Shown: positions 6,698-20,096, numbered from the stretch's first letter. The stretch: DNA of 64,000 nucleotides from Cyanobacteriota bacterium (GCA_025362325.1 JANYGO010000123.1:10229-74228), one strand, 5' to 3'. Numbers and translations are program-made. Notes: generated by a model from the letters alone, not told the origin.

Positions 6698-9241
6698 ATG
6701 CGTGCAGTGCTGATGGCTGGGGGGTCGGGAACGAGGCTCAGACCCCTGACGTGCGATTTACCCAAACCGATGGTTCCTATTCTGAATCGCCCGATCGCAG
6801 AACACATTATCAATTTGCTAAAAAGGCACAATATTACGGAAATTATTGCTACGCTGCACTACCTCCCCGATGTCATGCGCGAATATTTTACTGATGGGGC
6901 AGAGTTTGGCGTTCAAATGACTTACGCTGTGGAGGAAGACCAACCGCTGGGTACGGCTGGTTGTGTCAAAAATATTGCGGAATTGCTCGATCGCACTTTT
7001 CTTGTGATCAGCGGCGACAGCATCACGGATTTTGACTTGACGGAAGCTATAAAATTTCACCGCAGCAATAAGTCCAAAGCCACGTTAATTTTAACTCGCG
7101 TTCCCAACCCGATGGAATTCGGGGTGGTGATAACCGACGAAAATTACCGCATCAGTCGCTTTCTGGAAAAACCCTCTAGCAGCGAAATTTTCTCCGATAC
7201 CGTCAACACGGGCACCTACATTTTAGAGCCCGAAGTCTTGGATTATCTGCCTGTAGATAAAGAGTGCGACTTCTCGAAAGACTTGTTTCCGCTGCTGCTG
7301 GAAAAAAACGAGCCGATGTACGGTTACATCGCCGATGGTTATTGGTGCGATGTCGGCCAACTGGATGTTTACCGGGAAGCTCAGTATGACGCGCTGCAGG
7401 GAAAGGTGAAACTGGATTTGACCTATTATGACGAAGTTCGATCGGGACTTTGGGTAGGTCAGAATACTTTTATTGACGATAGCGCGATCGTCGAAGTACC
7501 GGCGATGATCGGTAGCAATTGCCGGATTGGAGCAAGAGTCAAAATTGACGCGGGTTCAGTAATCGGAGATAACGTGACAGTCGGGGCCGATGCTAACCTC
7601 AAACGTCCGATCGTTTGGAATGGAGCAATTGTCGGCGAAGACGCTCACCTCAGAGCCTGCGTGATTTGCCGCAGCACCCGCGTAGACAGGCGCGCCCACG
7701 TCCTCGAAGGTGCTGTCGTCGGTTCAATGTCGATCGTGGGAGAAGAAGCGCAAGTCGGCCCTTCCGTCCGCGTCTGGCCGAGCAAAAATATTGAATCCGG
7801 TGCTCTGTTAAATCAAAATTTAATTTGGGGAGAACAAGCTAAGCGGAATTTATTCGGTCAGCGCGGCGTTCAAGGACTGGCAAATGTGGATATTACCCCG
7901 GAATTTGCGGTGAAATTGGGCGCGGCTTACGGCTCGACTTTGAAACCGGGGGCTTCGGTATCGGTTTCTCGCGATCAGCGGAGCATTTCGCGGATGGTTT
8001 CGAGGTCTTTGATTGCGGGTTTGATGTCGGTGGGAATTAATGTGGTCAATTTGGAATCGACGGCAATTCCGATCGCGCGCACGGTTTCGTCTACGCTGTC
8101 GATTGCTGGCGGCATTCACGTCCGCATTTCGCCCGATCGCTCCGACCACATTTTAATTGAATTCTTCGATATCAAAGGCATCAATATTACTAAAGCCGTG
8201 GAGAAAAAAATCGAGGGCGCTTATTTTAAGGAAGATTTGCGGCGAGCTCTAATTCCCGAAATTGGAGAGATGTCGTACTTCAACCAAGCTTTCGACATTT
8301 ACAACCGGATGTTTGAGCGGCAGATGAATGTTGAGGCAATTCGTTACAGCAATTCTAAGGTGGTAATCGATTACGTTTACGCGGTTTCTGGAGCGATTCT
8401 GCCGCAAGTGCTCGCCAAGTTCGGCTGCGATGCGGTGGTGCTCAATGCCAGTCTCAAACAGACTTCTCTGAGCAACGGGGAACGGGAATATTTGCTCGAC
8501 CAACTCGGCCGGGTGGTGAAAGCACTCAGCGCTAATTTTGGCGTGCAGGTGTCGGCCAACGGCGAACAGCTCATTTTGGTAGATGAGTCGGGAATCGCGA
8601 TTCGGGGGGAAATGCTGACGGCGCTGATGGTAAATTTGATGCTGACTTCCCATCCCAGAGGTACAGTAGTAGTGCCGGTTCATGCGTCTTCTGCGGTGGA
8701 GGCGATCGCCCGCCGCTATCAAAGCAAGGTAATCCGCACGAAGGCGAACCCAACTGCTTTGATGGAAGCCGCTAACCGGAACCCGGATGTAGTTTTGGGC
8801 GGCAGCGGCCTTATGGGTTTTATTTTCCCGCAGTTGCATCCGGGCTTTGACGGAATGTTCTGCATTGCTAAAGTGATAGAAATGATGACGATTCAGGAGC
8901 GATCGCTCGGACAGATCAAAGCCGAACTTCCCCGCGTCACCCACCGCAGTTACAGCGTCCGCTGTCCTTGGACGGTAAAAGGTTCGCTGATGCGGCATTT
9001 AGTAGAAACTCATTCGCCCGATCGTTTAGAATTAATAGATGGAGTGAAGATTTTTAACTACAGCGACGACAATTGGATATTAGTTTTGCCGGATGCTAGC
9101 GAACCCACCGTTCATATCTTCGCCAACAGCGAGGATCGAGATTGGGTATCTGAAACTTTGAAGGAGTACCGCACCCTCGTTCACGATTTTGTCACTCAAG
9201 CCGAGGCGGCCGTTCGCCAAGATAAATTTGGTAATGGGTAA
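6698..9241 (+). CDS. Bifunctional mannose-1-phosphate guanylyltransferase / phosphomannomutase-like protein
   Basis: MRAVLMAGGSGTRLRPLT..PKPM NTP-transferase motif, hexapeptide repeats, then a phosphohexomutase-like domain (LFGQRGVQG, SRDQR). ATG at 6698. Confidence 0.93.
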   Translation: MRAVLMAGGSGTRLRPLTCDLPKPMVPILNRPIAEHIINLLKRHNITEIIATLHYLPDVMREYFTDGAEFGVQMTYAVEEDQPLGTAGCVKNIAELLDRTFLVISGDSITDFDLTEAIKFHRSNKSKATLILTRVPNPMEFGVVITDENYRISRFLEKPSSSEIFSDTVNTGTYILEPEVLDYLPVDKECDFSKDLFPLLLEKNEPMYGYIADGYWCDVGQLDVYREAQYDALQGKVKLDLTYYDEVRSGLWVGQNTFIDDSAIVEVPAMIGSNCRIGARVKIDAGSVIGDNVTVGADANLKRPIVWNGAIVGEDAHLRACVICRSTRVDRRAHVLEGAVVGSMSIVGEEAQVGPSVRVWPSKNIESGALLNQNLIWGEQAKRNLFGQRGVQGLANVDITPEFAVKLGAAYGSTLKPGASVSVSRDQRSISRMVSRSLIAGLMSVGINVVNLESTAIPIARTVSSTLSIAGGIHVRISPDRSDHILIEFFDIKGINITKAVEKKIEGAYFKEDLRRALIPEIGEMSYFNQAFDIYNRMFERQMNVEAIRYSNSKVVIDYVYAVSGAILPQVLAKFGCDAVVLNASLKQTSLSNGEREYLLDQLGRVVKALSANFGVQVSANGEQLILVDESGIAIRGEMLTALMVNLMLTSHPRGTVVVPVHASSAVEAIARRYQSKVIRTKANPTALMEAANRNPDVVLGGSGLMGFIFPQLHPGFDGMFCIAKVIEMMTIQERSLGQIKAELPRVTHRSYSVRCPWTVKGSLMRHLVETHSPDRLELIDGVKIFNYSDDNWILVLPDASEPTVHIFANSEDRDWVSETLKEYRTLVHDFVTQAEAAVRQDKFGNG

Positions 9242-9430
9242 TTGGTTATTTTGTTGGTTGTTATTGGTTATTAGTTATTGGTTATTGGTTATTAGTTATT
9301 GGTTATTATTTAGTCATTTCAACCAACAACTAACAAATAACAATTAACAAATAACAACTAACAAATAACAACCAACAAATAACCAATGCCCCATGCCCCA
9401 TGCCCCATGCCCAATTCCCAATTCCCATTT
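9238..9430. repeat. STRR heptamer tracts
   Basis: (GGTTATT)n, (AACAAAT/AACT)n, (CCATGCC)n, (CAATTCC)n. Confidence 0.85.
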
Positions 9431-9435
9431 AAGTT

Positions 9436-9987
9436 ATGAATAGCTGCATTTTGATGGCGGAAATAATTCAACAACCGCAACTCCGTTATACTCCTGACAA
9501 TCAACTTCAAATTGCTGAAATGCTGGTGCAGTTTCCAGGCCCAAAACCTGAAGATCCGCCCGAACATCTGAAGGTGATAGGATGGGGCAATTTAGCTCAA
9601 GAAATTCACGAAAAATATCGCGAGGGCGATCGCGTGATTATTGAAGGCCGGCTGGGTATGAATACGATCGACAGAGATGGTGTTAAAGAAAAGCGCGCTG
9701 AACTGACAGCTCAAAGGATTTACAGTGTCGGTGCCGATGCAATGAGTGCGGCTCCGGCAACTAGAAGCGTCCCCGAACCGGCTCAAATGCGCGACAGTGC
9801 GCCCGCTAATGTGCCGAGCAATGTGGTTCCCATGAGTTCCCGAGGTCGCAGTTCTAACAACGCTCCAGCCCCTGCTAAGGGCCCGTCTAGCTCTGATTGG
9901 AACTCGCATCAGTCTTCTGAGTCCGATCGCAAGTCTGGTTCCTCTAACGAAGCTGATAATCCCGATTACGATCCGATTCCGTTTTAG
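9436..9987 (+). CDS. ssb: Single-stranded DNA-binding protein (cyanobacterial type)
   Basis: PQLRYTPDNQ..., VIIEGRL OB-fold, low-complexity linker and acidic DYDPIPF tip. Confidence 0.88.
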   Translation: MNSCILMAEIIQQPQLRYTPDNQLQIAEMLVQFPGPKPEDPPEHLKVIGWGNLAQEIHEKYREGDRVIIEGRLGMNTIDRDGVKEKRAELTAQRIYSVGADAMSAAPATRSVPEPAQMRDSAPANVPSNVVPMSSRGRSSNNAPAPAKGPSSSDWNSHQSSESDRKSGSSNEADNPDYDPIPF

Positions 9988-10161
9988 GACGTACGGTTGA
10001 AACCGCGTCTACACAGGCAAAACCCGGATGGTGCGCGGGTTGAAAAACGGGAGGTTAAATTTACGTTCTTTTCTTCAGTCTGCGGAGGCAGACTTCGTTT
10101 TTGTAGACGCGGTTTCAACCGTACGTCCTTGTTTGTGTAGATTCGGTTTCAACCGTACGTC
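9988..10161. repeat. REP/REPIN-like element with 25-bp perfect inverted repeats plus an extra half-copy
   Basis: GACGTACGGTTGAAACCGCGTCTAC (9988-10012) and GTAGACGCGGTTTCAACCGTACGTC (10103-10127); third copy to 10161. Confidence 0.8.
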
Positions 10162-10847
10162 TGATCCGATCGCACAATTTCGACTCCAAAAACGCGAGCA
10201 AACTCAGCGAGTACGATCAATCGCACTCGATCGACCTCAATTCCCGGTATAAATTGCTCCAAACTGCCAACGGGTCGATCGGGAATCCCGCAAGGTACAA
10301 TTTGCCCAAAACCTGCCAGATCCGGGCAAACATTGAGAGCAAAACCGTGCATCGTAATCCAGCGACTGACTTTAATGCCGATCGCACCCACCTTGCACCC
10401 ATCCACCCAAACCCCAGTCATTCCCGCAACCCGCGAACCCTTCAACCCGCAAACTTCCAGCACCCTCAGCAGCACTTCCTCCAACTGCCGCAAATACCAG
10501 TGCAAATCCTGCACGTGACGGCGCAAATTTAAAATCGGATAGCCCACCAACTGGCCTGGACAATGGTAAGTCACTTCACCACCGCGCTCAACTCGGTGCA
10601 ATTCCGGCTGAGTTTCGCTGTCAAATTTCAGAAATTCCAACTTCGATCCCAGCCCCAAAGTGTAAACAGGCGGATGTTCCAGCAAAATCAGCACATCAGG
10701 CAAATCAGGATTCTCGCGGCGCTCTTGCACCAGTTTTTGCTGGATTTCCCAAGCTTGGGAGTAAGGCACTTGTCCCCAATCGAAGAGCAAGCAGGGTTGT
10801 GCATTTAGGTGTTGAGCGATAATAGGGGAAAGCATGAAAAAAATCAA
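10149..10847 (-). CDS. lipB: Lipoyl(octanoyl) transferase
   Basis: [47 protein letters not shown]. Start may be slightly downstream of 10847. Confidence 0.96.
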
Positions 10848-10984
10848 TAGTGTTTTTACGCAATATTGGTGCAGTTTAAATCAAGAATTGTCAACATATA
10901 AAAAAAATTGAAAGAAAAGTGTTTTGTTGAATACATAATGCTATTGTATAAACTATACCCAAGTTACAGAAGGGAGGGAGCTCT

Positions 10985-11638
10985 ATGAAGCTTGTTATCC
11001 AGGGTAAAAATATAGAAATCACCGATGCGATTCGCGAGTACGTCAACGAAAAGATTGAAAAGGCGGTTAGCCATTTTAAAACTTTGACTACTGAAGTGGA
11101 CATTCATCTATCGGTGGCTCGTAACCCCAGGATCAATCCTAAGCAGACTGCTGAGGTGACAATTTATGCTAACGGTAGCGTGATTCGGGCTGAGGAAAGC
11201 ACGGAAAGCCTTTATGCCAGCATAGATTTGGTTGCCGACAAGATAGCTCGTCAACTGCGGAAATTTAAGGAAAAACGCCACGACAACAAAATCCAGAATA
11301 GTCCCAAAACAATTGCGGTAGTTGATGAACATCCTGTAGCAGCAGATTTGATTGGCGATCGAACTCCCGAACTTCCTGCTGAGGTGGTGAGGACTAAGTA
11401 TTTTGCCATGCCTCCAATGACTGTGCAAGAAGCTTTGGAACAATTGCAGATTATCGATCACGATTTCTATATGTTCCGCAATGCGGAAACTGACGAAATT
11501 AACGTGCTCTACGAACGCAAGACTCACGGTGGCTATGGAGTTATCCAACCCCGCAACGGCAACGGCAACGGTAATAGCAAAAATGGCAAAACTGCCGAAA
11601 GTGCAGCACATGAAAAATCAGGTGCTGCGAAAAGTTAA
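10985..11638 (+). CDS. hpf: Ribosome hibernation promoting factor (long HPF / LrtA)
   Basis: [36 protein letters not shown]-terminal [20 protein letters not shown]. Confidence 0.96.
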
Positions 11639-11652
11639 ATAATTGCTATTAG

Positions 11653-11680
11653 CAAAGAGAGGACTAAATTCCTCTCTTTG
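11653..11680 (+). terminator. Hairpin after hpf, probable terminator
   Basis: CAAAGAGAGG-(8 nt)-CCTCTCTTTG, 15 bp after the stop codon. Confidence 0.55.
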
Positions 11681-11691
11681 TCTTAGAAACT

Positions 11692-11820
11692 AGGAGAGGG
11701 CAGTGCAGTCTCCCTACGATGTTGTTTTGGGTAGGGACACGGCACTGCCGTCTCCTTCTTATCATTGCGGTACAACCGGAATTGATGCCGTTCGTGTAGA
11801 CGCGGTTTCAACCGCCGTCT
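11692..11820. repeat. GTAG-type REP-like inverted pair plus a half-copy of the 9988 family
   Basis: AGGAGAGGGCAGTGCAGTCTCCCTAC / GTAGGGACACGGCACTGCCGTCTCCT; GTAGACGCGGTTTCAACCGCCGTC near 11796. Confidence 0.7.
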
Positions 11821-12277
11821 AATTTTTAATACTTTCCAAAGTTTTGAGAGATTCCGAAACGTGAGCCTTAAAATCCAACATCGAGTCAAAAATATGCTTG
11901 ACAACGCCTTGTTTGTCGATCGCATAAGTCACTCTACCGGGCATAATCCACATAGTAGCCGGAACCCCGTACAATTGCCGAACCTTATTGCCCGTATCGC
12001 TCAACAAAGTAAAAGGTAACTGATATTTTGAGGCAAATTTCTCGTGGGATTGTTGCGAATCGTCACTAATTCCGATCACTTCCGCACCAGCGTCTTTGAA
12101 AACTTCATAACTATCTCGAAAAGCGCAAGCTTCCGCCGTGCATCCCGGTGTATCGTCTTTCGGGTAAAAGTAGACGATGACATTTTTTTGACCACGAAAA
12201 TCCTTGAGGCTGACTGATGCGCCAGTTTGCGACGTTAAGGTAAAATCCGGTGCCGTATCTCCTACTTTGACTGCCAT
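11819..12277 (-). CDS. bcp: Peroxiredoxin (BCP/PrxQ family)
   Basis: YFYPKDDTPGCTAEACAFRD motif; PGRVTY. Confidence 0.93.
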   Translation of the reverse strand: MAVKVGDTAPDFTLTSQTGASVSLKDFRGQKNVIVYFYPKDDTPGCTAEACAFRDSYEVFKDAGAEVIGISDDSQQSHEKFASKYQLPFTLLSDTGNKVRQLYGVPATMWIMPGRVTYAIDKQGVVKHIFDSMLDFKAHVSESLKTLESIKN

Positions 12278-12378
12278 ATTTGTTTGACTCAGTAACTCTG
12301 TTTGCGGAAAATTTTAACTTTTGTTATTGTACAGTTTTTTACAGCCCAATAGGTTTGCGATCGGCATAGTGCGGGGTT

Positions 12379-15300
12379 TTACCCCCCGTCTTGCTTCGAC
12401 AAAATCAAGTTGAGTACGTTCAACTCATTGGAACTCAAAAGGTACTTATCCGTAAACATCTTTTCCCGACTTTGCTCTAAACTGTAGCTTCTAAACACGA
12501 TAAACGGGAATTCGTGGTACTTAGGCCCGATCGGGATTATACTGTCTATCGGATAGGTCGATCGCACGGCAGCCGACAAAATATCCCGAAACATCAGATC
12601 CTCCGGTTCCTCCAGCTTGGTGTCAGCAAAATATTCCTGCATCGCATCCCCGCTGACAAAAGCAAACAAAGGTATGGCATAATAGCGATCGAACTGCTGG
12701 CTTTGCTGCTGGAAATACTGAGTTTTCTCCACATCGCCGCTGAGAAACTGCAATAATTCGATCGCGCCGCCCCTAATAGCCGATCGTAAATTCTCAGGGT
12801 AAGATTTGCTATCCCTAATGCGATACATATTTTCCAGCAACCCATTATCTAAACAGTTTTTAATTTCATTATTCAAGCGCATCTGATAGTTTTCATCCAA
12901 ACTTTTATCAGCCAAAGGCACTATCAACAAACCGCCACAAACATGACCAATCTCAAGATTCCCATAACCCAGCAAACCCTCAAGAGGATTGCACGCCTGC
13001 AAAAACTTCCGATTAAAATCCTCCCGCATTTCCAAGTAAGAATTGCCCGTTGAATGAGATGTATCAGAATTTGTCAAAACAAACTCCCCACGGCTCAAAA
13101 GCTGCTCCAGCCCCTCATAAACCTCCTTCAGTAACATATTTCCTCGGTTACTGCGGTGTTCGCTTTTCAAACTTTTAATCAAAGAAGCAATCTTGCTACT
13201 AAAAGTATCACCCACAGCCGAAATCGACTTCCCACCAATCGGAATCATCAAAAACCTTTCCCTACCCAAATATCCGTATCCCACAATCCGCGTCATCACC
13301 GCAGCCTTAAGAATTAGCAGCAAATTCAACAAACTCAACTTGCTTTCTCGTAGCGAAAGTTCCGGATCATCAGCATAGTAAACCGCTGTATCAGACAAGT
13401 AAAAAACCAACTCCTTAGCTTCACCATCCAGCGTATTACCATCCTCATCTTCCCCGCGCCCCCGATAGATAACTTGAATCACCTCCATCAGATTTTTCTC
13501 AATTTGAAAGCGGGGAATATCCACTAAAATATGCTTAGTTTTCGGGAAAGACAAGCCGCGACTTCCCGATGCAGTCATGAAAACTACTTTAACTTTGTTT
13601 TTGCACTTTTGTATTTGCTCCTTCTCCTCTTCCGAGATATTCGCGTGGACTTCCAGATAATCGGTGTAGCGCTTAAATTCTCGCTCATTTTGGATTCTAT
13701 CAATCAACTCAGCCAATCTTCGCTTATCCTGAATGTAGACGATAATTTGTTCAACTCTCGGTATTGCTAAGCGCTGATTGATATCCTCAACTATTTCAGA
13801 CTGTACCCGTTTTACCAAATCATTTTTGGGCTTCAAGGAAATATCTTCAGTAAATTTGGCAGCTTCTACAAACACCTTATAAGTTATCTCTAAACTGCTA
13901 GCTGGATAAGAATTAGTATTGATAACTTTAGCAGCTAATCGTTTGAATTCAAAAGGAGTCACCTGTAATGGTGGGATTTCCTCGGATTTTTTTGGTAGCT
14001 TTTTGAAATAAATTTTATCCGGTTCCGGCGAGGTATCATCGAGGTGTTGTTTAATCACATCCGGGTCAACAATCGAAGCGTCTGCTACAATAATTTTAGT
14101 GTTAAAACCGTGTTCCGGCTTGTGCAAATCATATTTTTTGACTAGCTTACCAATTCCATGCAGAAACTCAACGCCGCCGTCGTCTCCGGTAATTTCATCG
14201 ATCATAATGAAGATGTGTTTGATCCGGCTGGAGATTTCCTGCATTTTAGGAGAGATAACTTCTTTTCCCTGTTTGTTGTAAGCATCTTGAAAAATCTTCT
14301 CTAAATGTTGGAGAGTATTTTTTCCTTTTTCTGTCACCTTCAAAGACTGAATAGAAACGGTAGCCACGATATTGTTCGATGTCTTGCAATTGATGCGCGC
14401 ATATATTCCCTCACAAACACTATTTAGCACTCCATGCTTTTTGCCAATCCTAGGTTTAATTACGGTTTCTCCCTTCCTTTCCAATTGCGGCTTGTGAGAT
14501 TTGTTATGCTGTATTTTTGCGCCGTCATTGATGAAGTGCACAGTTTTTTGTTGAAAATTTTCGTGATAGTTATTGGCTGCGTAGTTGACGGTACATTGTC
14601 CAAAATTGCTGTCTATAATATCAGAACTTGAGTTAATACAAAATAATCGATTGTCGCACAACAAACCAGTCTTTTTGTCTCGGAATTTTTCGATAATATC
14701 TAAGTTAACTTGCTTGCGGGGACTGACGTAAAAGAACAAGAAACCGTCGTTTATATGGGTTTTGAGGAAATTTGCGATCGCAGTTGTTTTCCCAATTCCC
14801 GGATTCCCAGTCAAAAATAGGTAGGTTTCGTCAGATTCCAGTGCTTTGACAATTAATTGAGCGTGAGCATTTCTCAGGTGCAATCCGCGAGAAATTTGTA
14901 AATCATCTGCCAGTTTATCTGATATAATATCAATGGAATTGACAAAGTTATCGATCCGCTCTGTATGACATACAGGTGTGACATTTTTGCCAATCGTCAA
15001 CAAATCGCTGACAAACTTTTTACCCTTCTGAAAACTGTAACCTGCGTTAAGTTGGATCGCATCTAAAACTTCGGCGCGAGCATCATTAATCTGTTTATCT
15101 TTCGCTTCCTGCTGGTAGATTTTGGCACAATTCGCCAAGATGTCAATTTTATCATTGCGGAGGGAAATTGCGCTAATTGTGCGATCGCTATAACCGACAA
15201 CATTCAACAAAACCTCAGCATCATCAGGAATCATCTGAGTTGCTTTCAAAAAACCGTAGAAGCTGTGAGCGTAGCTACCAGCCTGAATCAACTTAGCGCT

Positions 15301-16053
15301 TTCCTTATCCTTATACTTAAAAGCCGTAAAATAGCGGTTTAAACCCTCCGAAAAGTCAATCCCTAAAGTGCTAGTATCGATTCGCAAATTAGAAAAAACA
15401 CTTTTCGATCGCAAATAGCTAATTTCTCTGAGCAAAGACTTCCGCATCACCTCTATTTCGTTCAGATTATCGACTTTTTCCGAAGTCAACGGGGGAGTAA
15501 ACACAGACAAATCAACGCACAGAATCCTAAAATCTCTACCATTCTGTAGCAGAATCAGGGTATCAGCTTGCAAAAACTCGCCTTTGTTCTTGTAGCGGCG
15601 GATGTAGGAGTTAATCTCATCGTCTGATAAATTCGGTTTCACCGTTTCAAACTGAGATAATACTTTCTTAAACCCTTTAAATATTTCTATTTCATCGTCC
15701 TTCTGGGTTCTAATACTGTTAGCGCAATTAAAACTACACTGAAAATACAATATTTGCGCTAAATTTAAATTCCAGCCAGTAGATTTGATGTACTCCCGGA
15801 AAAAATTTATCCCGCCCAAAAACCCTTTTTGAACAAAAAACAAGCTCCACTTTTCAACAACTTTAGCATCTAAACTACCAAGCAAATTAGCTTCCTTGAT
15901 TATCTCTGCTGTTATCTTTGGCAATTTAAGTTGTTGCAAGTCCAAACGGTAAGAATCGCCGAAATTGTGAGCTATATTTTCTCGCTGAATATACGCCAGA
16001 ATCCCGATATTGAATCCAACCTCAAACAGCCGTCCAAAATCTTCACCAATCAT
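12379..16053 (-). CDS. Large SF2-type helicase with a putative N-terminal RecB-like nuclease domain
   Basis: Walker A GNPGIGKT (~14784-14810), Walker B MIDEITGD (~14180-14208), motif V-like SRGLSFP, motif VI-like QVIYRGRG. Likely ATG at 16053, preceded by GGAGG. Confidence 0.8.
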   Translation of the reverse strand: MIGEDFGRLFEVGFNIGILAYIQRENIAHNFGDSYRLDLQQLKLPKITAEIIKEANLLGSLDAKVVEKWSLFFVQKGFLGGINFFREYIKSTGWNLNLAQILYFQCSFNCANSIRTQKDDEIEIFKGFKKVLSQFETVKPNLSDDEINSYIRRYKNKGEFLQADTLILLQNGRDFRILCVDLSVFTPPLTSEKVDNLNEIEVMRKSLLREISYLRSKSVFSNLRIDTSTLGIDFSEGLNRYFTAFKYKDKESAKLIQAGSYAHSFYGFLKATQMIPDDAEVLLNVVGYSDRTISAISLRNDKIDILANCAKIYQQEAKDKQINDARAEVLDAIQLNAGYSFQKGKKFVSDLLTIGKNVTPVCHTERIDNFVNSIDIISDKLADDLQISRGLHLRNAHAQLIVKALESDETYLFLTGNPGIGKTTAIANFLKTHINDGFLFFYVSPRKQVNLDIIEKFRDKKTGLLCDNRLFCINSSSDIIDSNFGQCTVNYAANNYHENFQQKTVHFINDGAKIQHNKSHKPQLERKGETVIKPRIGKKHGVLNSVCEGIYARINCKTSNNIVATVSIQSLKVTEKGKNTLQHLEKIFQDAYNKQGKEVISPKMQEISSRIKHIFIMIDEITGDDGGVEFLHGIGKLVKKYDLHKPEHGFNTKIIVADASIVDPDVIKQHLDDTSPEPDKIYFKKLPKKSEEIPPLQVTPFEFKRLAAKVINTNSYPASSLEITYKVFVEAAKFTEDISLKPKNDLVKRVQSEIVEDINQRLAIPRVEQIIVYIQDKRRLAELIDRIQNEREFKRYTDYLEVHANISEEEKEQIQKCKNKVKVVFMTASGSRGLSFPKTKHILVDIPRFQIEKNLMEVIQVIYRGRGEDEDGNTLDGEAKELVFYLSDTAVYYADDPELSLRESKLSLLNLLLILKAAVMTRIVGYGYLGRERFLMIPIGGKSISAVGDTFSSKIASLIKSLKSEHRSNRGNMLLKEVYEGLEQLLSRGEFVLTNSDTSHSTGNSYLEMREDFNRKFLQACNPLEGLLGYGNLEIGHVCGGLLIVPLADKSLDENYQMRLNNEIKNCLDNGLLENMYRIRDSKSYPENLRSAIRGGAIELLQFLSGDVEKTQYFQQQSQQFDRYYAIPLFAFVSGDAMQEYFADTKLEEPEDLMFRDILSAAVRSTYPIDSIIPIGPKYHEFPFIVFRSYSLEQSREKMFTDKYLLSSNELNVLNLILSKQDGG

Positions 16054-19000
16054 GATTAGTACCTCCCTCACCGACATTCAATACTTCTCTTACCTTATTC
16101 AAAAATGCCAGAGAATTAAAATCCGCGCTACCGCCAGCATGACTAAATACCGACAAAGCACCAATCGAGTCATCGCCAATAATCCGCTCGTAGGGGTCAA
16201 GTTTTAAACTAATATTTTGACGAGCTTCATACCTAGAAAAGTGGAACATTGTTAAATAGTGTAGCAAAGTATTTTTGATTGCACCATCATAAATCAAACC
16301 TTCACGAATATCTTGATCGTCTAGAATACCTTGATAGATATTCAACAGCGTCGAGTAGGAAATCACACCGTTGTAAAAGTTTTTTTCTCCTGACTGCTTG
16401 ACTTTAATCCCGTTAAACAAGTTGAAAAACATCACAGCTTGCTGACTCGTATCTGCAAACAAGCTTTCCAGTTCCATTGTATCTTGAATATAAAAAGATT
16501 TTCCCTGATCACCTAGGAAACTGCGGACATAGTATTTGTCAAAAAATATCGGATAAATCTTGATATCTCGGCGCTCTCCCTTCAAAGTTCGGAGCAGTTT
16601 TTTGGACATGAAAGACAATTCCTCATCTTCATCAGTCTTGGTAATATGCAGTGTACTCATGTAAGGTGCTTGCGAAATATATGCGAAATTCCGATATCCT
16701 TGTCGATAAAGCTGACTCATTACATCTTCAAGGATTAACGGCTCAGAATAAAGACGGCTGACACTGTAATTCTCGGAAAATGTTTTCAGCATTTCGACTT
16801 GAATTTTGCTGTCGTCTAGGCGATTGATTCCGACAACTTCTCCGATTAAGCTGGCTTGTCTTTGGAAGCGGTTTTGATTACCTCTTTTTGCATCACTATC
16901 TCGGCTGGAAACAACAATAATTGCTAACTTGTCTAATTCTGGAGCTAGCTGTACATTGTCGTCGAAGCGAAACTTTTTAGGAAGTATTGAATACATCGAA
17001 CTCAAACCGTTACGGATACGGAAACCATCAGGTTTTTCTCTAATCCGAAATCCTTGAGAAGTTGAGCGTTGTTTTTCACTCAAAAGATGAGACAATGTTT
17101 TGGAAAGATTAGCCATGAACTCTTCTGACGGTGAACGATGTTTCTTGTCGCCTTCGTGAAGTCTCACCATCGGAATAAACAAGTTGTTCGCAGTATTTTC
17201 TAGCAATATCTTCAAACAGATATAGGACAGCAGCAGCATGGTAAACTTATACACAAAAGTCGCCGCAGGCTGTAAACCTTTGTCACCGCTGTGTAGTCGT
17301 TTATCGTCATAGGGAAACAAAACTAATTTTGTCTGAAAATGCTTGTTGTAGATTGCTCTAGAGCGATCGGCTTTAGGTGCAGAAAGTACAGGCAAAATAT
17401 CAACGCCTTTGATATTATATTCCATGCTAAAATTTTGGCGTTCATTAGTCGGGAAATACCGGACATCTTCGATGCTGATATTGACTGGTAGCTGACAAAT
17501 AGATTTTTCATCGACACTAGGTTCTTTGACGGTAATATAATGAAGCGTTTGCTTATAATTTCGCTCCATAATTTCATTAAAAAATTTACCAGTCGTCAAA
17601 ATATTGTCAATATCTTCTACTAGACCTAGTTTGAGGTTTACGTGTCGCGTTTCTGTGCGGCTTGGCAAAATTGTCTGCCGCTCCAGAAAGCCTTTCAGCA
17701 TTCTTTTTAGATGCGTAATTTTGTGCTTTATATTAAACTGATTGAATCCTTTAATAAAGTTGCGAAAAAGCTCTTTTTTTTCCTCATCGTTAGAACCTTG
17801 CAAAACAGGCAATACTCTTTGTTCAAATATGGCGATCGGCTGATGATTGAATTCAGATTCAGGATCATAATTTTGTGCTAGTGGGTTGCTGCGGGAAGCA
17901 AACACAAAATAGTACAGCAATGCTAGTTTTAAGACTTTGCGTACAAAAGTTTCGGTATTAGAATACTCCTCAAATTCTGCTTTGTGTTCTTCACTATCTG
18001 GATTTAGCAGATTCAGATTATATTCAAATACTTCTTTTCCACCGCGCGCTTGAACTGGATTGTCAAATTTGATTTTTAGACCAAATACAAACTTACGTTC
18101 GTTACGAGAATTGTCCGTACTTTCTCCCAAGTAACCTGATACAATAGGAATAATTGGCAGTGCATCTAGGACTTCGGCTCTCGCGAAAATTTCTTTGTAA
18201 TTAACTCGAATACCAGCATAATTTACCTCATAATCACCATCGGATTTATTTGGAGCGTTGATGTATTCTTCTATCAATCTGAGGCGACGAATCAAGTCTT
18301 CTAAATAGATTACGCCTACAGTATCTGTGCTGCTAGCGCGGATGTGTTCTAGCAGATATTCCAAGTAAGTAATCTTAGCTTCTTTTTGAATTTTTCCGAG
18401 AGTTTCTTTGTCTACCAGTCGGATTAATTTGTGAAAATCCGAGTCAGGATTTTTAACCATCTCATCAAGACGGTGGTTAAGGTCTTCTTTCTCACTGCTA
18501 GTCTCGGCATTTTCATTGATATAATTTTCTAAGCCCTTCTTTAGTTCTTGTTCAAAAATATCAGTGTTTCGGACGGTAACGGTCAATTTATGCAGCTTTA
18601 AAGTCGCATGGCTTCCAGCACCTCGGCTTTCTAAAGTTAGCCTTTCTTTTTCTAATGGGTGGCGGGTGCCAAAATCGTATTTGAAGCCTAACTCTTGACC
18701 GTTTCCCCGAAAAGAAGGGGAATCTAAAGGACTGATCAAATTAGCGACAAACCTCTCACTCGAGGTATTTTGAGGCAGTTTAACTTCTAAATGTTGCCGC
18801 AAACACTCTCTAATCTGTCTGACTTGACTGCCAAAATGCTCCTCAATTTCCGGCGGTAAGTTAACAGTGGCAGAATCTGCTTGACGTTCAAAAGAACCCA
18901 AGGGTTGCCGCACTTGCTTCTTGGAAACATCCGCAGCAATGGTGTCAATATCAATTAGCAAGCGGCGGCTGTCTTCTGATACGCTAAACGGGTTCTTTCC

Positions 19001-19084
19001 CTGCAAAGTTTCTAAAATTTTGTCCAGCAAATCGCCGTAGTCTACTGGAACTAAATCGTCATCGCCTAGTCTTAAGATGTTCAC
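16043..19084 (-). CDS. 1013-aa hypothetical protein with a putative divergent, catalytically inactive Argonaute-like MID-PIWI C-terminus
   Basis: Long uninterrupted ORF, GTG start with GGAG upstream, overlaps the helicase start by 11 nt. MID/PIWI assignment is by-eye motif order only. Confidence 0.6.
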   Translation of the reverse strand: MNILRLGDDDLVPVDYGDLLDKILETLQGKNPFSVSEDSRRLLIDIDTIAADVSKKQVRQPLGSFERQADSATVNLPPEIEEHFGSQVRQIRECLRQHLEVKLPQNTSSERFVANLISPLDSPSFRGNGQELGFKYDFGTRHPLEKERLTLESRGAGSHATLKLHKLTVTVRNTDIFEQELKKGLENYINENAETSSEKEDLNHRLDEMVKNPDSDFHKLIRLVDKETLGKIQKEAKITYLEYLLEHIRASSTDTVGVIYLEDLIRRLRLIEEYINAPNKSDGDYEVNYAGIRVNYKEIFARAEVLDALPIIPIVSGYLGESTDNSRNERKFVFGLKIKFDNPVQARGGKEVFEYNLNLLNPDSEEHKAEFEEYSNTETFVRKVLKLALLYYFVFASRSNPLAQNYDPESEFNHQPIAIFEQRVLPVLQGSNDEEKKELFRNFIKGFNQFNIKHKITHLKRMLKGFLERQTILPSRTETRHVNLKLGLVEDIDNILTTGKFFNEIMERNYKQTLHYITVKEPSVDEKSICQLPVNISIEDVRYFPTNERQNFSMEYNIKGVDILPVLSAPKADRSRAIYNKHFQTKLVLFPYDDKRLHSGDKGLQPAATFVYKFTMLLLSYICLKILLENTANNLFIPMVRLHEGDKKHRSPSEEFMANLSKTLSHLLSEKQRSTSQGFRIREKPDGFRIRNGLSSMYSILPKKFRFDDNVQLAPELDKLAIIVVSSRDSDAKRGNQNRFQRQASLIGEVVGINRLDDSKIQVEMLKTFSENYSVSRLYSEPLILEDVMSQLYRQGYRNFAYISQAPYMSTLHITKTDEDEELSFMSKKLLRTLKGERRDIKIYPIFFDKYYVRSFLGDQGKSFYIQDTMELESLFADTSQQAVMFFNLFNGIKVKQSGEKNFYNGVISYSTLLNIYQGILDDQDIREGLIYDGAIKNTLLHYLTMFHFSRYEARQNISLKLDPYERIIGDDSIGALSVFSHAGGSADFNSLAFLNKVREVLNVGEGGTNHDW

Positions 19085-19097
19085 CCTGTTAACTCCT

Positions 19098-19367
19098 TTA
19101 AAATGCTTGAATCCACTCTTTGATTTCGTATTCTGTCCAAACCTGATTTACCCAATAGGGATCGGTTTCAACTAATTCTCGCACTTGGGCTTCGTCTGTG
19201 GCTTCGTAAATGGCGAAAACTTTAGTTAAGTCTTTGGTGGGCCCGATCGTACTTAATACACCCGATTCCTTCTGTTGAGCCAATCCAGCCAAATGAGCGT
19301 CTCGAAATGGTGCGCGTTTTTCCAGCACGTCTTCGCAGTAACTTCCCCACATTACATATTTGGTCAC
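19098..19367 (-). CDS. YciI family protein
   Basis: RAPFRDAHLAGL, IGPTKD, DPYWVNQVW..YEIKEW motifs. Confidence 0.9.
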   Translation of the reverse strand: MTKYVMWGSYCEDVLEKRAPFRDAHLAGLAQQKESGVLSTIGPTKDLTKVFAIYEATDEAQVRELVETDPYWVNQVWTEYEIKEWIQAF

Positions 19368-19526: not shown

Positions 19527-20096
19527 ATGACTTTGTTAGACATTCGGCTGCTGACGGTTCAAGAATATGACCGGATGACGGAAATTGGTATTTTTGATGA
19601 GGATGAACGGGTAGAATTACTAGCAGGACAGATAGTAAAGATGGCAGCAAAAGGAACAGCACACGGTGCGGCGGTTAAACGGACAGAGAAGCTACTGGAA
19701 AACCGTTTGGGAGAGCGGGTTTTGGTGCGGCTGCAAGACCCGGTTCGGCTGAATAATTACTCGGAACCTGAACCGGATATTTCTGTAGTTATACCAGATC
19801 CACTTTACTATGAAGACCACCATCCAACTCCTTCAGAAATTTATTTGATTATTGAAGTTGCGGATACTACTCTGAGAACGGATTGTGGCATAAAAGCGAA
19901 AATTTATGCTGAGTCGGGGATTACTGATTATTGGGTTTTGGATGTGAATAATCGGCAACTTCATGTTTTTAGAGAACCGAGTCAAGATGGTTATCAAAGT
20001 CGGGTAATGCTGGGGGACGATGCGAGTATTTCTCCTTGGCAATTTCCTGATATTTCTTTTTGTGTGTCAGAGATGTTGCGTCCACTAAGTTATTAA
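19527..20096 (+). CDS. Uma2 (DUF820) family endonuclease-like protein
   Basis: RVELLAGQIVKM, EPEPDISVV, LIIEVADTT, YAESGITDYWVLD. Confidence 0.92.
   Translation: MTLLDIRLLTVQEYDRMTEIGIFDEDERVELLAGQIVKMAAKGTAHGAAVKRTEKLLENRLGERVLVRLQDPVRLNNYSEPEPDISVVIPDPLYYEDHHPTPSEIYLIIEVADTTLRTDCGIKAKIYAESGITDYWVLDVNNRQLHVFREPSQDGYQSRVMLGDDASISPWQFPDISFCVSEMLRPLSY

Follow-up and report, generated by a model that had tools for sequence, protein, structure and literature searches.

What do two long, overlapping genes do among the housekeeping genes of a cyanobacterial chromosome, when the product of the first resembles no described family at the level of sequence? The question is raised by a stretch of 64,000 nt from Cyanobacteriota bacterium (GCA_025362325.1, JANYGO010000123.1:10229-74228), referred to as a whole as the window, in which the pair occupies positions 12379-19084 and encodes the proteins that we call P1 and P2. 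An initial annotation of this DNA had proposed that an Argonaute-like protein is coupled here to a nuclease-helicase in a module that matches no named system. The analysis below points to a two-gene module, probably not described before, in which an Argonaute-like protein is paired with a helicase-like ATPase.

Fold and motifs of P1 and P2

P1 had no match in Pfam (E ≤ 1), NCBIfam or PADLOC, and a phmmer search of the PDB sequences returned no Argonaute and nothing else of relevance. Exhaustive searching of 1.84 billion cluster representatives with HMMER defined a P1 family of 273 clusters (E ≤ 1e-3; identity down to 25%), the full-length members of which are mostly about 950-1100 residues long. 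From these relatives we used an alignment of 49 diverse homologues, with identities down to 21% (alignment A1), for structure prediction by AlphaFold2, for a sequence profile and for the analysis of conservation. The 49 sequences gave scattered noise and no relevant family against Pfam (E ≤ 0.01), and their profile found no Argonaute among the PDB sequences. The AlphaFold2 model of P1 (mean predicted local distance difference test (pLDDT) score, 88.4; predicted template modelling (pTM) score, 0.89) was then compared with the PDB using Foldseek. Ranks 1-8 were all Argonaute or PIWI proteins (E 8.5e-6 to 4.8e-3; prob 0.90-1.0), namely TtAgo of T. thermophilus (E 8.5e-6), MpAgo of Marinitoga, mouse Mili (MILI; two entries), EfPiwi of Ephydatia, CrtAgo and the Argonautes of XauSPARDA and NbaSPARDA. 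Beyond rank 8 the matches were seemingly unrelated and had prob values below 0.25, except for the MID-PIWI part of QDE-2 (0.47) and RuvC (0.35), both of which have the RNase H fold. The TM-scores were low (TMt 0.23-0.38), as expected for globally superposed multi-domain proteins, and the alignments to full-length TtAgo and Mili ran to 528 and 731 columns, exceeding MID-PIWI alone. The Argonaute-like character given to P1 at the outset, for which a PIWI or RNase H structural match had been sought, is upheld by these eight top ranks: to judge from the model, P1 very probably has an Argonaute fold, with a Rossmann-like MID and an RNase H-like PIWI architecture.

The MID-like domain (Table 1) carries a conserved pattern that resembles a guide-binding MID pocket. 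Conserved among the 49 homologues are K662, H666, S676-Q677-G678, N692, S696, Y698 and K703; Q677 is invariant, the S676-Q677-G678 triplet is invariant or nearly so, and position 703, which lies 26 residues after Q677, is Lys or Arg in 44 of the 49. K662 and H666 precede Q677 by 15 and 11 residues, respectively. The 5′-phosphate pockets of MID domains are formed by Y123, K127, Q137 and K163 in AfPiwi and by R418, K422, Q433 and K457 in TtAgo, and with these residue numbers the Q677-K703 spacing of 26 presumably matches both pockets.

The PIWI-like domain was assigned in part through Foldseek matches that include MID-PIWI proteins, short prokaryotic Argonautes (pAgos) among them. Its first strand reads K-L-A-I-x-x-V-S-S-R-x-x-D (VSSRxxD at residues 725-731), with S727 present in 43 of the 49 sequences, and its fourth reads Y-I-(A/S)-Q-A-P-Y (Y802-I-S804-Q-A-P807 in the window), where position 804 is Ala in 42 and Ser in 5 of the 49. 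Canonical Argonautes carry the catalytic motifs GxDVxH and YRDG. We assigned the catalytic Asp positions by eye, by aligning the P1 motifs to these two and not by structural superposition. Because both positions are then held by other residues, S727 and A/S804, no DEDX tetrad is evident in P1 and, at the level of motifs, the canonical catalytic residues are lost. The N-terminal half of the protein comprises a small α/β domain, a long helical hairpin (residues 177-275), β-rich modules and a helical bundle. Since the alignments to TtAgo and Mili extend over 528-731 columns, part of this half (residues 1-586) probably corresponds in the model to the N, L1, PAZ-like and L2 segments of Argonautes.

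For P2, residues are numbered from the ATG at 16053, and conservation was read from an alignment of 26 sequences with identities down to 25% (alignment A2) and from a second alignment of 12 sequences. Pfam returned Helicase_C (1.8e-6; 28.6 bits, cut-off 23.5) as well as P-loop matches, and motifs I, II and VI of superfamily 2 (SF2) do not vary among the 26 sequences (GNPGIGKTT at 416-424, D619-E620 and Q860xxYRGRG867). The AlphaFold2 model (pLDDT 81.4) gave 220 Foldseek matches in the PDB at E ≤ 1e-3, the best 50 of 220 being without exception SF2-type helicases or translocases, and the fold matches include UvrB, Brr2, HrpA, Mfd, Lhr and RecQ-type proteins. By motifs and fold P2 is an SF2 helicase, with an extra C-terminal region of about 320 residues. 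Its first 300 residues contain a set that is invariant in both alignments (E11, K157-G158, A163-D164, D181-L-S183, K254 and Q257-A-x-x-Y261) and that resembles motifs I-IV of RecB/Cas4 nucleases, with D164 at the start of one strand (165-171) and D181 at the end of the other (174-183) of a β hairpin; E11, D164, D181 and Q257xxxY261 are placed on this hairpin and a helix.

Table 1. Features of the gene pair and of the adjoining gene (window coordinates)
Feature	Position	Strand	Description	Basis
P1	16043..19084	-	1013 aa, GTG start; Argonaute-like	Open reading frame and translation
P1 N-terminal half	17327..19084	-	Residues 1-586; confidently folded in the model; without family assignment	
P1 MID-like Rossmann domain	16964..17326	-	Residues ~587-707	β-α-β-α-β-α-β pattern in the model
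P1 PIWI-like RNase H-fold domain	16073..16930	-	Residues ~719-1004	Model secondary structure, conservation, Foldseek
P2	12379..16053	-	1224 aa; SF2 helicase-like ATPase; further domains at both termini	
P2 candidate RecB/Cas4-like PD-(D/E)xK nuclease domain	15154..16053	-	Residues 1-300	Motif level only
Coupling junction	16043..16066	-	GGAGG 16066-16062; P2 ATG 16053-16051; P1 stop TGA 16045-16043	
YCII-domain gene	19098..19367	-	Directly upstream of P1	Pfam YCII 1.2e-18

Coupling, distribution and allele turnover of the pair

The initial annotation had described two long minus-strand open reading frames (ORFs) that overlap by 11 nt, with a GGAGG site inside the upstream gene, and both the ORFs and the junction sequence agree with it. 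The overlap is ATGATTGGTGA, the minus strand across the junction reads ...GAGGGAGGTACTAATCATGATTGGTGA, and the GGAGG stands 8 nt 5′ of the P2 ATG at 16053, the same distance as separates an AGGAG (19097-19093) from the GTG of P1. The longest reading of P2 would begin at an ATG at 16077 (12379-16077, minus strand, 1232 residues). However, its homologues align only from residue 8-10 of this longest ORF, and many start about 3 nt past the P1 stop, so that ATG 16053 is taken as the conserved start; abutting or overlapping genes are the rule among the relatives. Omega, the ratio of non-synonymous to synonymous change, is about 0.17 (0.17 for P1 and 0.16 for P2), roughly twice the 0.07-0.09 of the flanks. 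Both genes are under clear purifying selection and are therefore real.

The association of the two genes extends across the family. P2 directly follows P1 at all 37 loci with enough sequence from Microcoleus, Tychonema, Kamptonema and Lyngbya (Microcoleaceae), in 10 of 10 other cyanobacterial genomes from several families (P1 identity 38-48%), on both of the conjugative Nostocales plasmids examined, with a 4-nt overlap on plasmid C of Trichormus variabilis ATCC 29413, and at 5 of 7 distant non-cyanobacterial genomic loci (23-30% identity). The identities of P1 and P2 to the window copies co-vary across loci (Spearman 0.77). Wherever the family occurs, down to 25% identity, the two genes are nearly always found together, and they very probably form a functional pair. 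A conserved third gene was found beside the pair neither in the other cyanobacteria nor at the distant loci. One contig from a high-GC metagenome (ENA ERZ25039476, contig_57627; locus L062, 47-6133) carries an apparent fusion of P1 and P2 in a single frame of 2028 residues; this fusion is unverified and may be an assembly error, since a frameshift occurs close to the C-terminus of P2 on that contig. Two cyanobacterial genomes depart from direct adjacency. In one (L060, 10680-12385) P1 and P2 are parted by an insert of 2 kb, which has three ORFs on the opposite strand (254, 161 and 122 residues), the 254-residue ORF, which was the one scanned, having no Pfam match; in the other (L057, 10913-12127) the two genes are separated by a 1.2-kb gap without a long ORF.

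The family occurs in 61 of 401 sampled cyanobacterial genomes and 28 of 155 genera, all in one order, with presence and absence inside single genera. The gene order in Microcoleaceae is constant, PheT-(Uma2)-YCII-P1-P2-(ZnuABC in some)-Bcp. In other families the pair occupies other housekeeping sites, following purQ in three genomes or standing beside dnaN, icd, miaA or a transglutaminase gene. Six conjugative Nostocales plasmids carry the family, with integrases adjoining it in both that were examined; no phage carrying it was found. Decayed or split copies of P1 (short stop-interrupted fragments in genomes G071 and G152, a copy split by a single stop in G208 and matches in two pieces in G296) show that the family is being lost in some cyanobacterial lineages. 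Named carriers come from the filamentous cyanobacteria, the mycelial Ktedonobacteria (Thermosporothrix, Thermogemmatispora) and five clusters of the Epulopiscium group; most family members are unnamed metagenome proteins, and this carrier pattern rests on few named clusters.

Divergence at the conserved Microcoleus site shows how the alleles have moved. Relative to the window, the synonymous divergence (dS) of P1 ranges from 0.14 to 1.19 and that of PheT from 0.33 to 0.72. The closest P1 (94% identity, dS 0.14; locus L029) sits beside a PheT gene that is among the most distant (dS 0.64), at the loci of a 68%-identity class P1 dS is about 1.1 and PheT dS about 0.5, and at some loci a P1 close to that of the window is accompanied by a distant P2. 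Because P1 dS does not track PheT dS, an exchange of alleles between lineages at a fixed locus is indicated. Conservation of the pair is accordingly neither universal nor purely vertical, as the 61 of 401 genomes, the pseudogenes, the conjugative plasmids and the exchanged alleles attest, and the pattern of dS, omega, turnover and mobility is typical of genes in genetic conflict. One congener (L051, G292:C11:44000-63999, 8289-17967) has the order YCII, P1 (46%), P2 (54%), a second intact P1 (64%) and then bcp. The second P1 has no P2 of its own, and the same two-P1 pattern is seen in genome G320; at these two loci two P1 sensors may share one helicase.

Two distant loci have neighbours of a different kind. 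On a low-GC metagenome contig (L063), a regulator with helix-turn-helix, WYL and WCX domains (94-1038) precedes the pair and an N6_Mtase/Eco57I/TaqI_C-type methyltransferase gene (8690-10411) follows it, a defence-island-like setting. In Ca. Epulonipiscium viviparus (CP117982.1; L069, 10001-17884), a solo P1 of 955 residues lies about 2.6 kb upstream of genes for ZorA-like (PF28082) and OmpA/ZorB-like proteins.

A proposed role and its alternatives

On balance, if only slightly, we lean towards reading the pair as a guide-directed system against foreign DNA such as plasmids and phages, the function that the initial annotation had put forward; that interpretation finds support at the level of fold and of genomic context. 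P1, long, Argonaute-like and catalytically inactive, would be the sensor: with a short nucleic-acid guide bound in its MID-type pocket, it would recognize a complementary nucleic acid. P2 would be made in step with P1, in stoichiometric amounts, through translational coupling, and target-bound P1 would recruit or activate it; as an ATP-driven effector, P2 would then unwind and probably cut the target DNA, most likely that of plasmids and phages. By analogy, DdmDE and Cascade-Cas3 would follow the same logic. In this scheme we infer guide binding, the identity of guide and target, contact between P1 and P2, nuclease activity and a defence phenotype. Defence is the most likely role because of the mobility, allele turnover and patchiness of the family together with the two distant loci, one with WYL and methyltransferase genes and the other with ZorA/ZorB-like genes.

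A number of observations weigh against this proposal. Motif III of the candidate nuclease reads D-L-S in P2, its Lys being replaced by S183. A 12-sequence profile of the P2 N-terminus found in the PDB only a chance match to a viral Rep protein (E 0.05), a Pfam search of this region at E ≤ 10 returned nothing but noise, whole-chain Foldseek searches of the PDB and BFVD gave helicases only and no nuclease fold, which leaves both terminal domains of P2 without an assignment, and PADLOC gave P2 only a marginal match to mad8 (E 0.005). Because the motif-III Lys is absent and no profile or fold search confirms a nuclease, the label of nuclease-helicase, a plausible one from the motifs, is unproven: the helicase in the initial annotation has held up by motifs, Pfam and fold, and the nuclease has been reduced to a motif pattern with no fold behind it. 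As for P1, the first pair of its MID pocket is K662/H666 rather than Y/R/H..K, and its C-terminus is neither conserved nor confidently modelled, for which reasons guide binding is not assured. Solo P1 genes, with no P2 within 10 kb, occur in Ca. Epulonipiscium viviparus and in Thermosporothrix hazakensis (L070). Every sampled genome of the window's genus carries the pair, and the cyanobacterial chromosomal sites are family-specific, conserved and of housekeeping character (pheT/bcp, purQ, dnaN, icd, miaA), with no mobile-element genes or obvious defence island at them. Its placement in Microcoleaceae, at a single conserved site between housekeeping genes, is a point missing from the initial annotation and leaves room for a cellular role outside defence.

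The main rival to defence is such a cellular role in the genome maintenance of large, filamentous or polyploid hosts, in which the pair would help to complete replication, to decatenate or resolve the copies of the chromosome or to process intermediates of recombination. Synteny among housekeeping genes in several cyanobacterial families, presence in all sampled genomes of the window's genus and purifying selection all speak for it, as do the carriers, which are filamentous cyanobacteria, mycelial Ktedonobacteria and the Epulopiscium group. These organisms are large-celled or polyploid. For TtAgo, SeAgo and PsPIWI-RE, involvement in chromosome maintenance has been reported, and deletion of PsPIWI-RE alters cell division and ciprofloxacin sensitivity (PMC10991935), which sets a precedent. 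We nevertheless consider the maintenance role unlikely: alleles far older or younger than their flanks point to exchange and not to vertical descent, the family is patchy within genera, includes pseudogenes and lies beside integrases on conjugative plasmids, one locus has a WYL and restriction-modification context, omega is twice that of the flanks, and the taxon pattern comes from few named clusters, most members being metagenomic. It is quite unlikely that the pair is, more specifically, a guide-directed chromosome-maintenance machine of large, filamentous or highly polyploid bacteria and not primarily immune; in such a machine, P1 would use chromosome-derived guides to direct the helicase-nuclease to sister or homologous copies of the genome, so that these could be resolved, undergo gene conversion or be controlled in number.

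Two further alternatives concern what kind of protein P1 is. It might keep the Argonaute fold and hold no guide, sensing instead a protein or a DNA structure and controlling the P2 helicase, much as in sensor-helicase pairs (Hachiman) or in guide-less PIWI-fold proteins (Med13). The non-canonical K662/H666 pair and the poorly conserved, low-confidence C-terminus would fit such a protein, as would the lack of any sequence-level tie to an Argonaute family and an N-terminal half of about 590 residues without assignment. But S-Q and K are invariant at the canonical MID spacing and the TtAgo and Mili alignments (528-731 columns) exceed a bare RNase H core; we regard a guide-free P1 as distinctly unlikely. 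Least probable, and in our view very unlikely, is that the pair is a highly divergent branch of pPIWI-RE (PIWI-RE with a DinG-type helicase and a restriction endonuclease (REase)) in which the REase has been fused to the helicase. The two share a component logic of PIWI fold, SF2 helicase and restriction-endonuclease-like motif set, with overlapping genes coupling the PIWI-fold protein to SF2 helicase and nuclease functions, and P1, with about 1000 residues and an uncharacterized N-terminal half, resembles descriptions of PIWI-RE. Pfam includes pPIWI_RE-specific models (the X, Y, Z, MID, RNaseH and REase domains), yet P1 (E ≤ 1), its 49 relatives (E ≤ 0.01) and P2 have no match to them. Moreover, the fold matches of P2 are best to UvrB, Ski2-like, DEAH and Mfd proteins and not to DinG or XPD, neither a separate REase gene nor a conserved third gene is present, and P1 precedes the helicase, the reverse of the order in P. 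stutzeri, where dinG precedes piwi-re (PMC10991935).

Related systems and neighbouring genes

The nearest counterpart of the pair in logic is DdmDE of Vibrio cholerae, which a 2026 review gives as the example of an Argonaute coupled to a helicase-nuclease. Both consist of two genes, for an Argonaute-fold protein without DEDX and for an SF2 helicase of about 1200 residues with a PD-(D/E)xK nuclease (putative in P2), and both probably work by a sensor recruiting a processive effector. The differences are nevertheless many. P1 and P2 have no sequence or profile similarity to the PDB chains of DdmE and DdmD, and DdmE is not among the best 50 fold matches of P1, nor DdmD among the best 50 of P2. 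DdmE is about 300 residues shorter than the 1013-residue P1. P2 has its extra C-terminal region of about 320 residues, and P1 and P2 are chromosomally fixed among housekeeping genes in cyanobacteria. DdmE belongs to the long-C clade of pAgos, has C-APAZ and INS domains and forms its MID pocket from Tyr363, Gln376 and Lys405 (10.1101/2024.05.10.593530), the first pair being Tyr/Lys there and K/H in P1. In DdmD the helicase is N-terminal and the PD-(D/E)xK nuclease C-terminal (10.1101/2024.05.10.593530), and P2 has the reverse order because its nuclease-like motifs (11-261) precede the Walker A motif (416-424). DdmDE is nearest in logic and not in descent, and DdmDE and pPIWI-RE alike are analogues of the pair rather than relatives.

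Other systems are more remote. In the long-B and short pAgo systems (BPAN, SPARTA, SPARDA) an inactive PIWI sensor likewise works with a separate effector, and the SPARDA short pAgos and CrtAgo are among the structural matches of P1. Their effectors, however, are nucleases or NADases that act through oligomerization and abortive infection, not helicases, and they show no sequence kinship to P1 or P2. The type I CRISPR Cascade-Cas3 system offers an analogy only, in that a guide-bearing sensor recruits a fusion of nuclease and then SF2 helicase; its proteins are unrelated to P1 and P2, and the module is accompanied by no CRISPR array. Literature searches found no published description of the P1/P2 family, and PADLOC, Pfam, NCBIfam, the PDB sequences and the literature held no described system that matches the pair, so that the initial view of it as outside all named systems stands.

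Were the proposal true, P1 would represent a new clade of Argonaute-fold proteins that cannot be recognized by sequence and comprises about 270 clusters at 50% identity, annotated as 'hypothetical protein'. The pair would then join DdmDE as only the second example of an Argonaute linked to a helicase(-nuclease), having arisen independently and with its domains in another order. Filamentous cyanobacteria of ecological importance (Microcoleus, Planktothrix, Nostocales) often carry it, as do their conjugative plasmids, and it could therefore affect the uptake or retention of plasmids in genetic work. The fixed site with its exchanged alleles lends itself to work on how modules of this kind evolve in nature, and a long inactive Argonaute with a dedicated motor may be of interest as a programmable DNA-targeting tool.

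In the window, the pair is flanked on one side by genes for a GMPP/PGM-like fusion, SSB, LipB, HPF and Bcp/AhpC-TSA and on the other by YCII, Uma2 and PheT. The pair had been called visibly richer in AT than its neighbours and free of nearby integrase or transposase genes; its GC content is indeed 0.37-0.41, against 0.45-0.52 in both flanks, and no integrase or transposase lies within about 7 kb of it. The YCII gene ends 13 nt before P1 in the window, and the spacing, given as 16 nt across the 37 loci, is constant. No terminator-like site was found on the minus strand between YCII and the genes of the pair, and promoter and terminator scans performed no better than on shuffled sequence. YCII is probably co-transcribed with the pair, in Microcoleaceae only; we rejected it as a component of the module, as it adjoins the pair in that family and not in others. 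Some Microcoleus loci have 3.5 kb of additional DNA between P2 and bcp, which proved to encode a ZnuABC transporter unrelated to the pair. This ZnuA/ZnuC/ZnuB-type ABC cassette (about 3.5 kb; 14879-18196 in locus L002, and equivalents) occurs in about one third to one half of the Microcoleus loci, and since it is present in some loci and absent from the window, genes are gained and lost at the P2-bcp junction. Divergent from YCII-P1-P2 lies a gene for a putative restriction-endonuclease-like protein of the Uma2 family (19527-20096, plus strand), which is found at most, though not all, of the Microcoleaceae loci.

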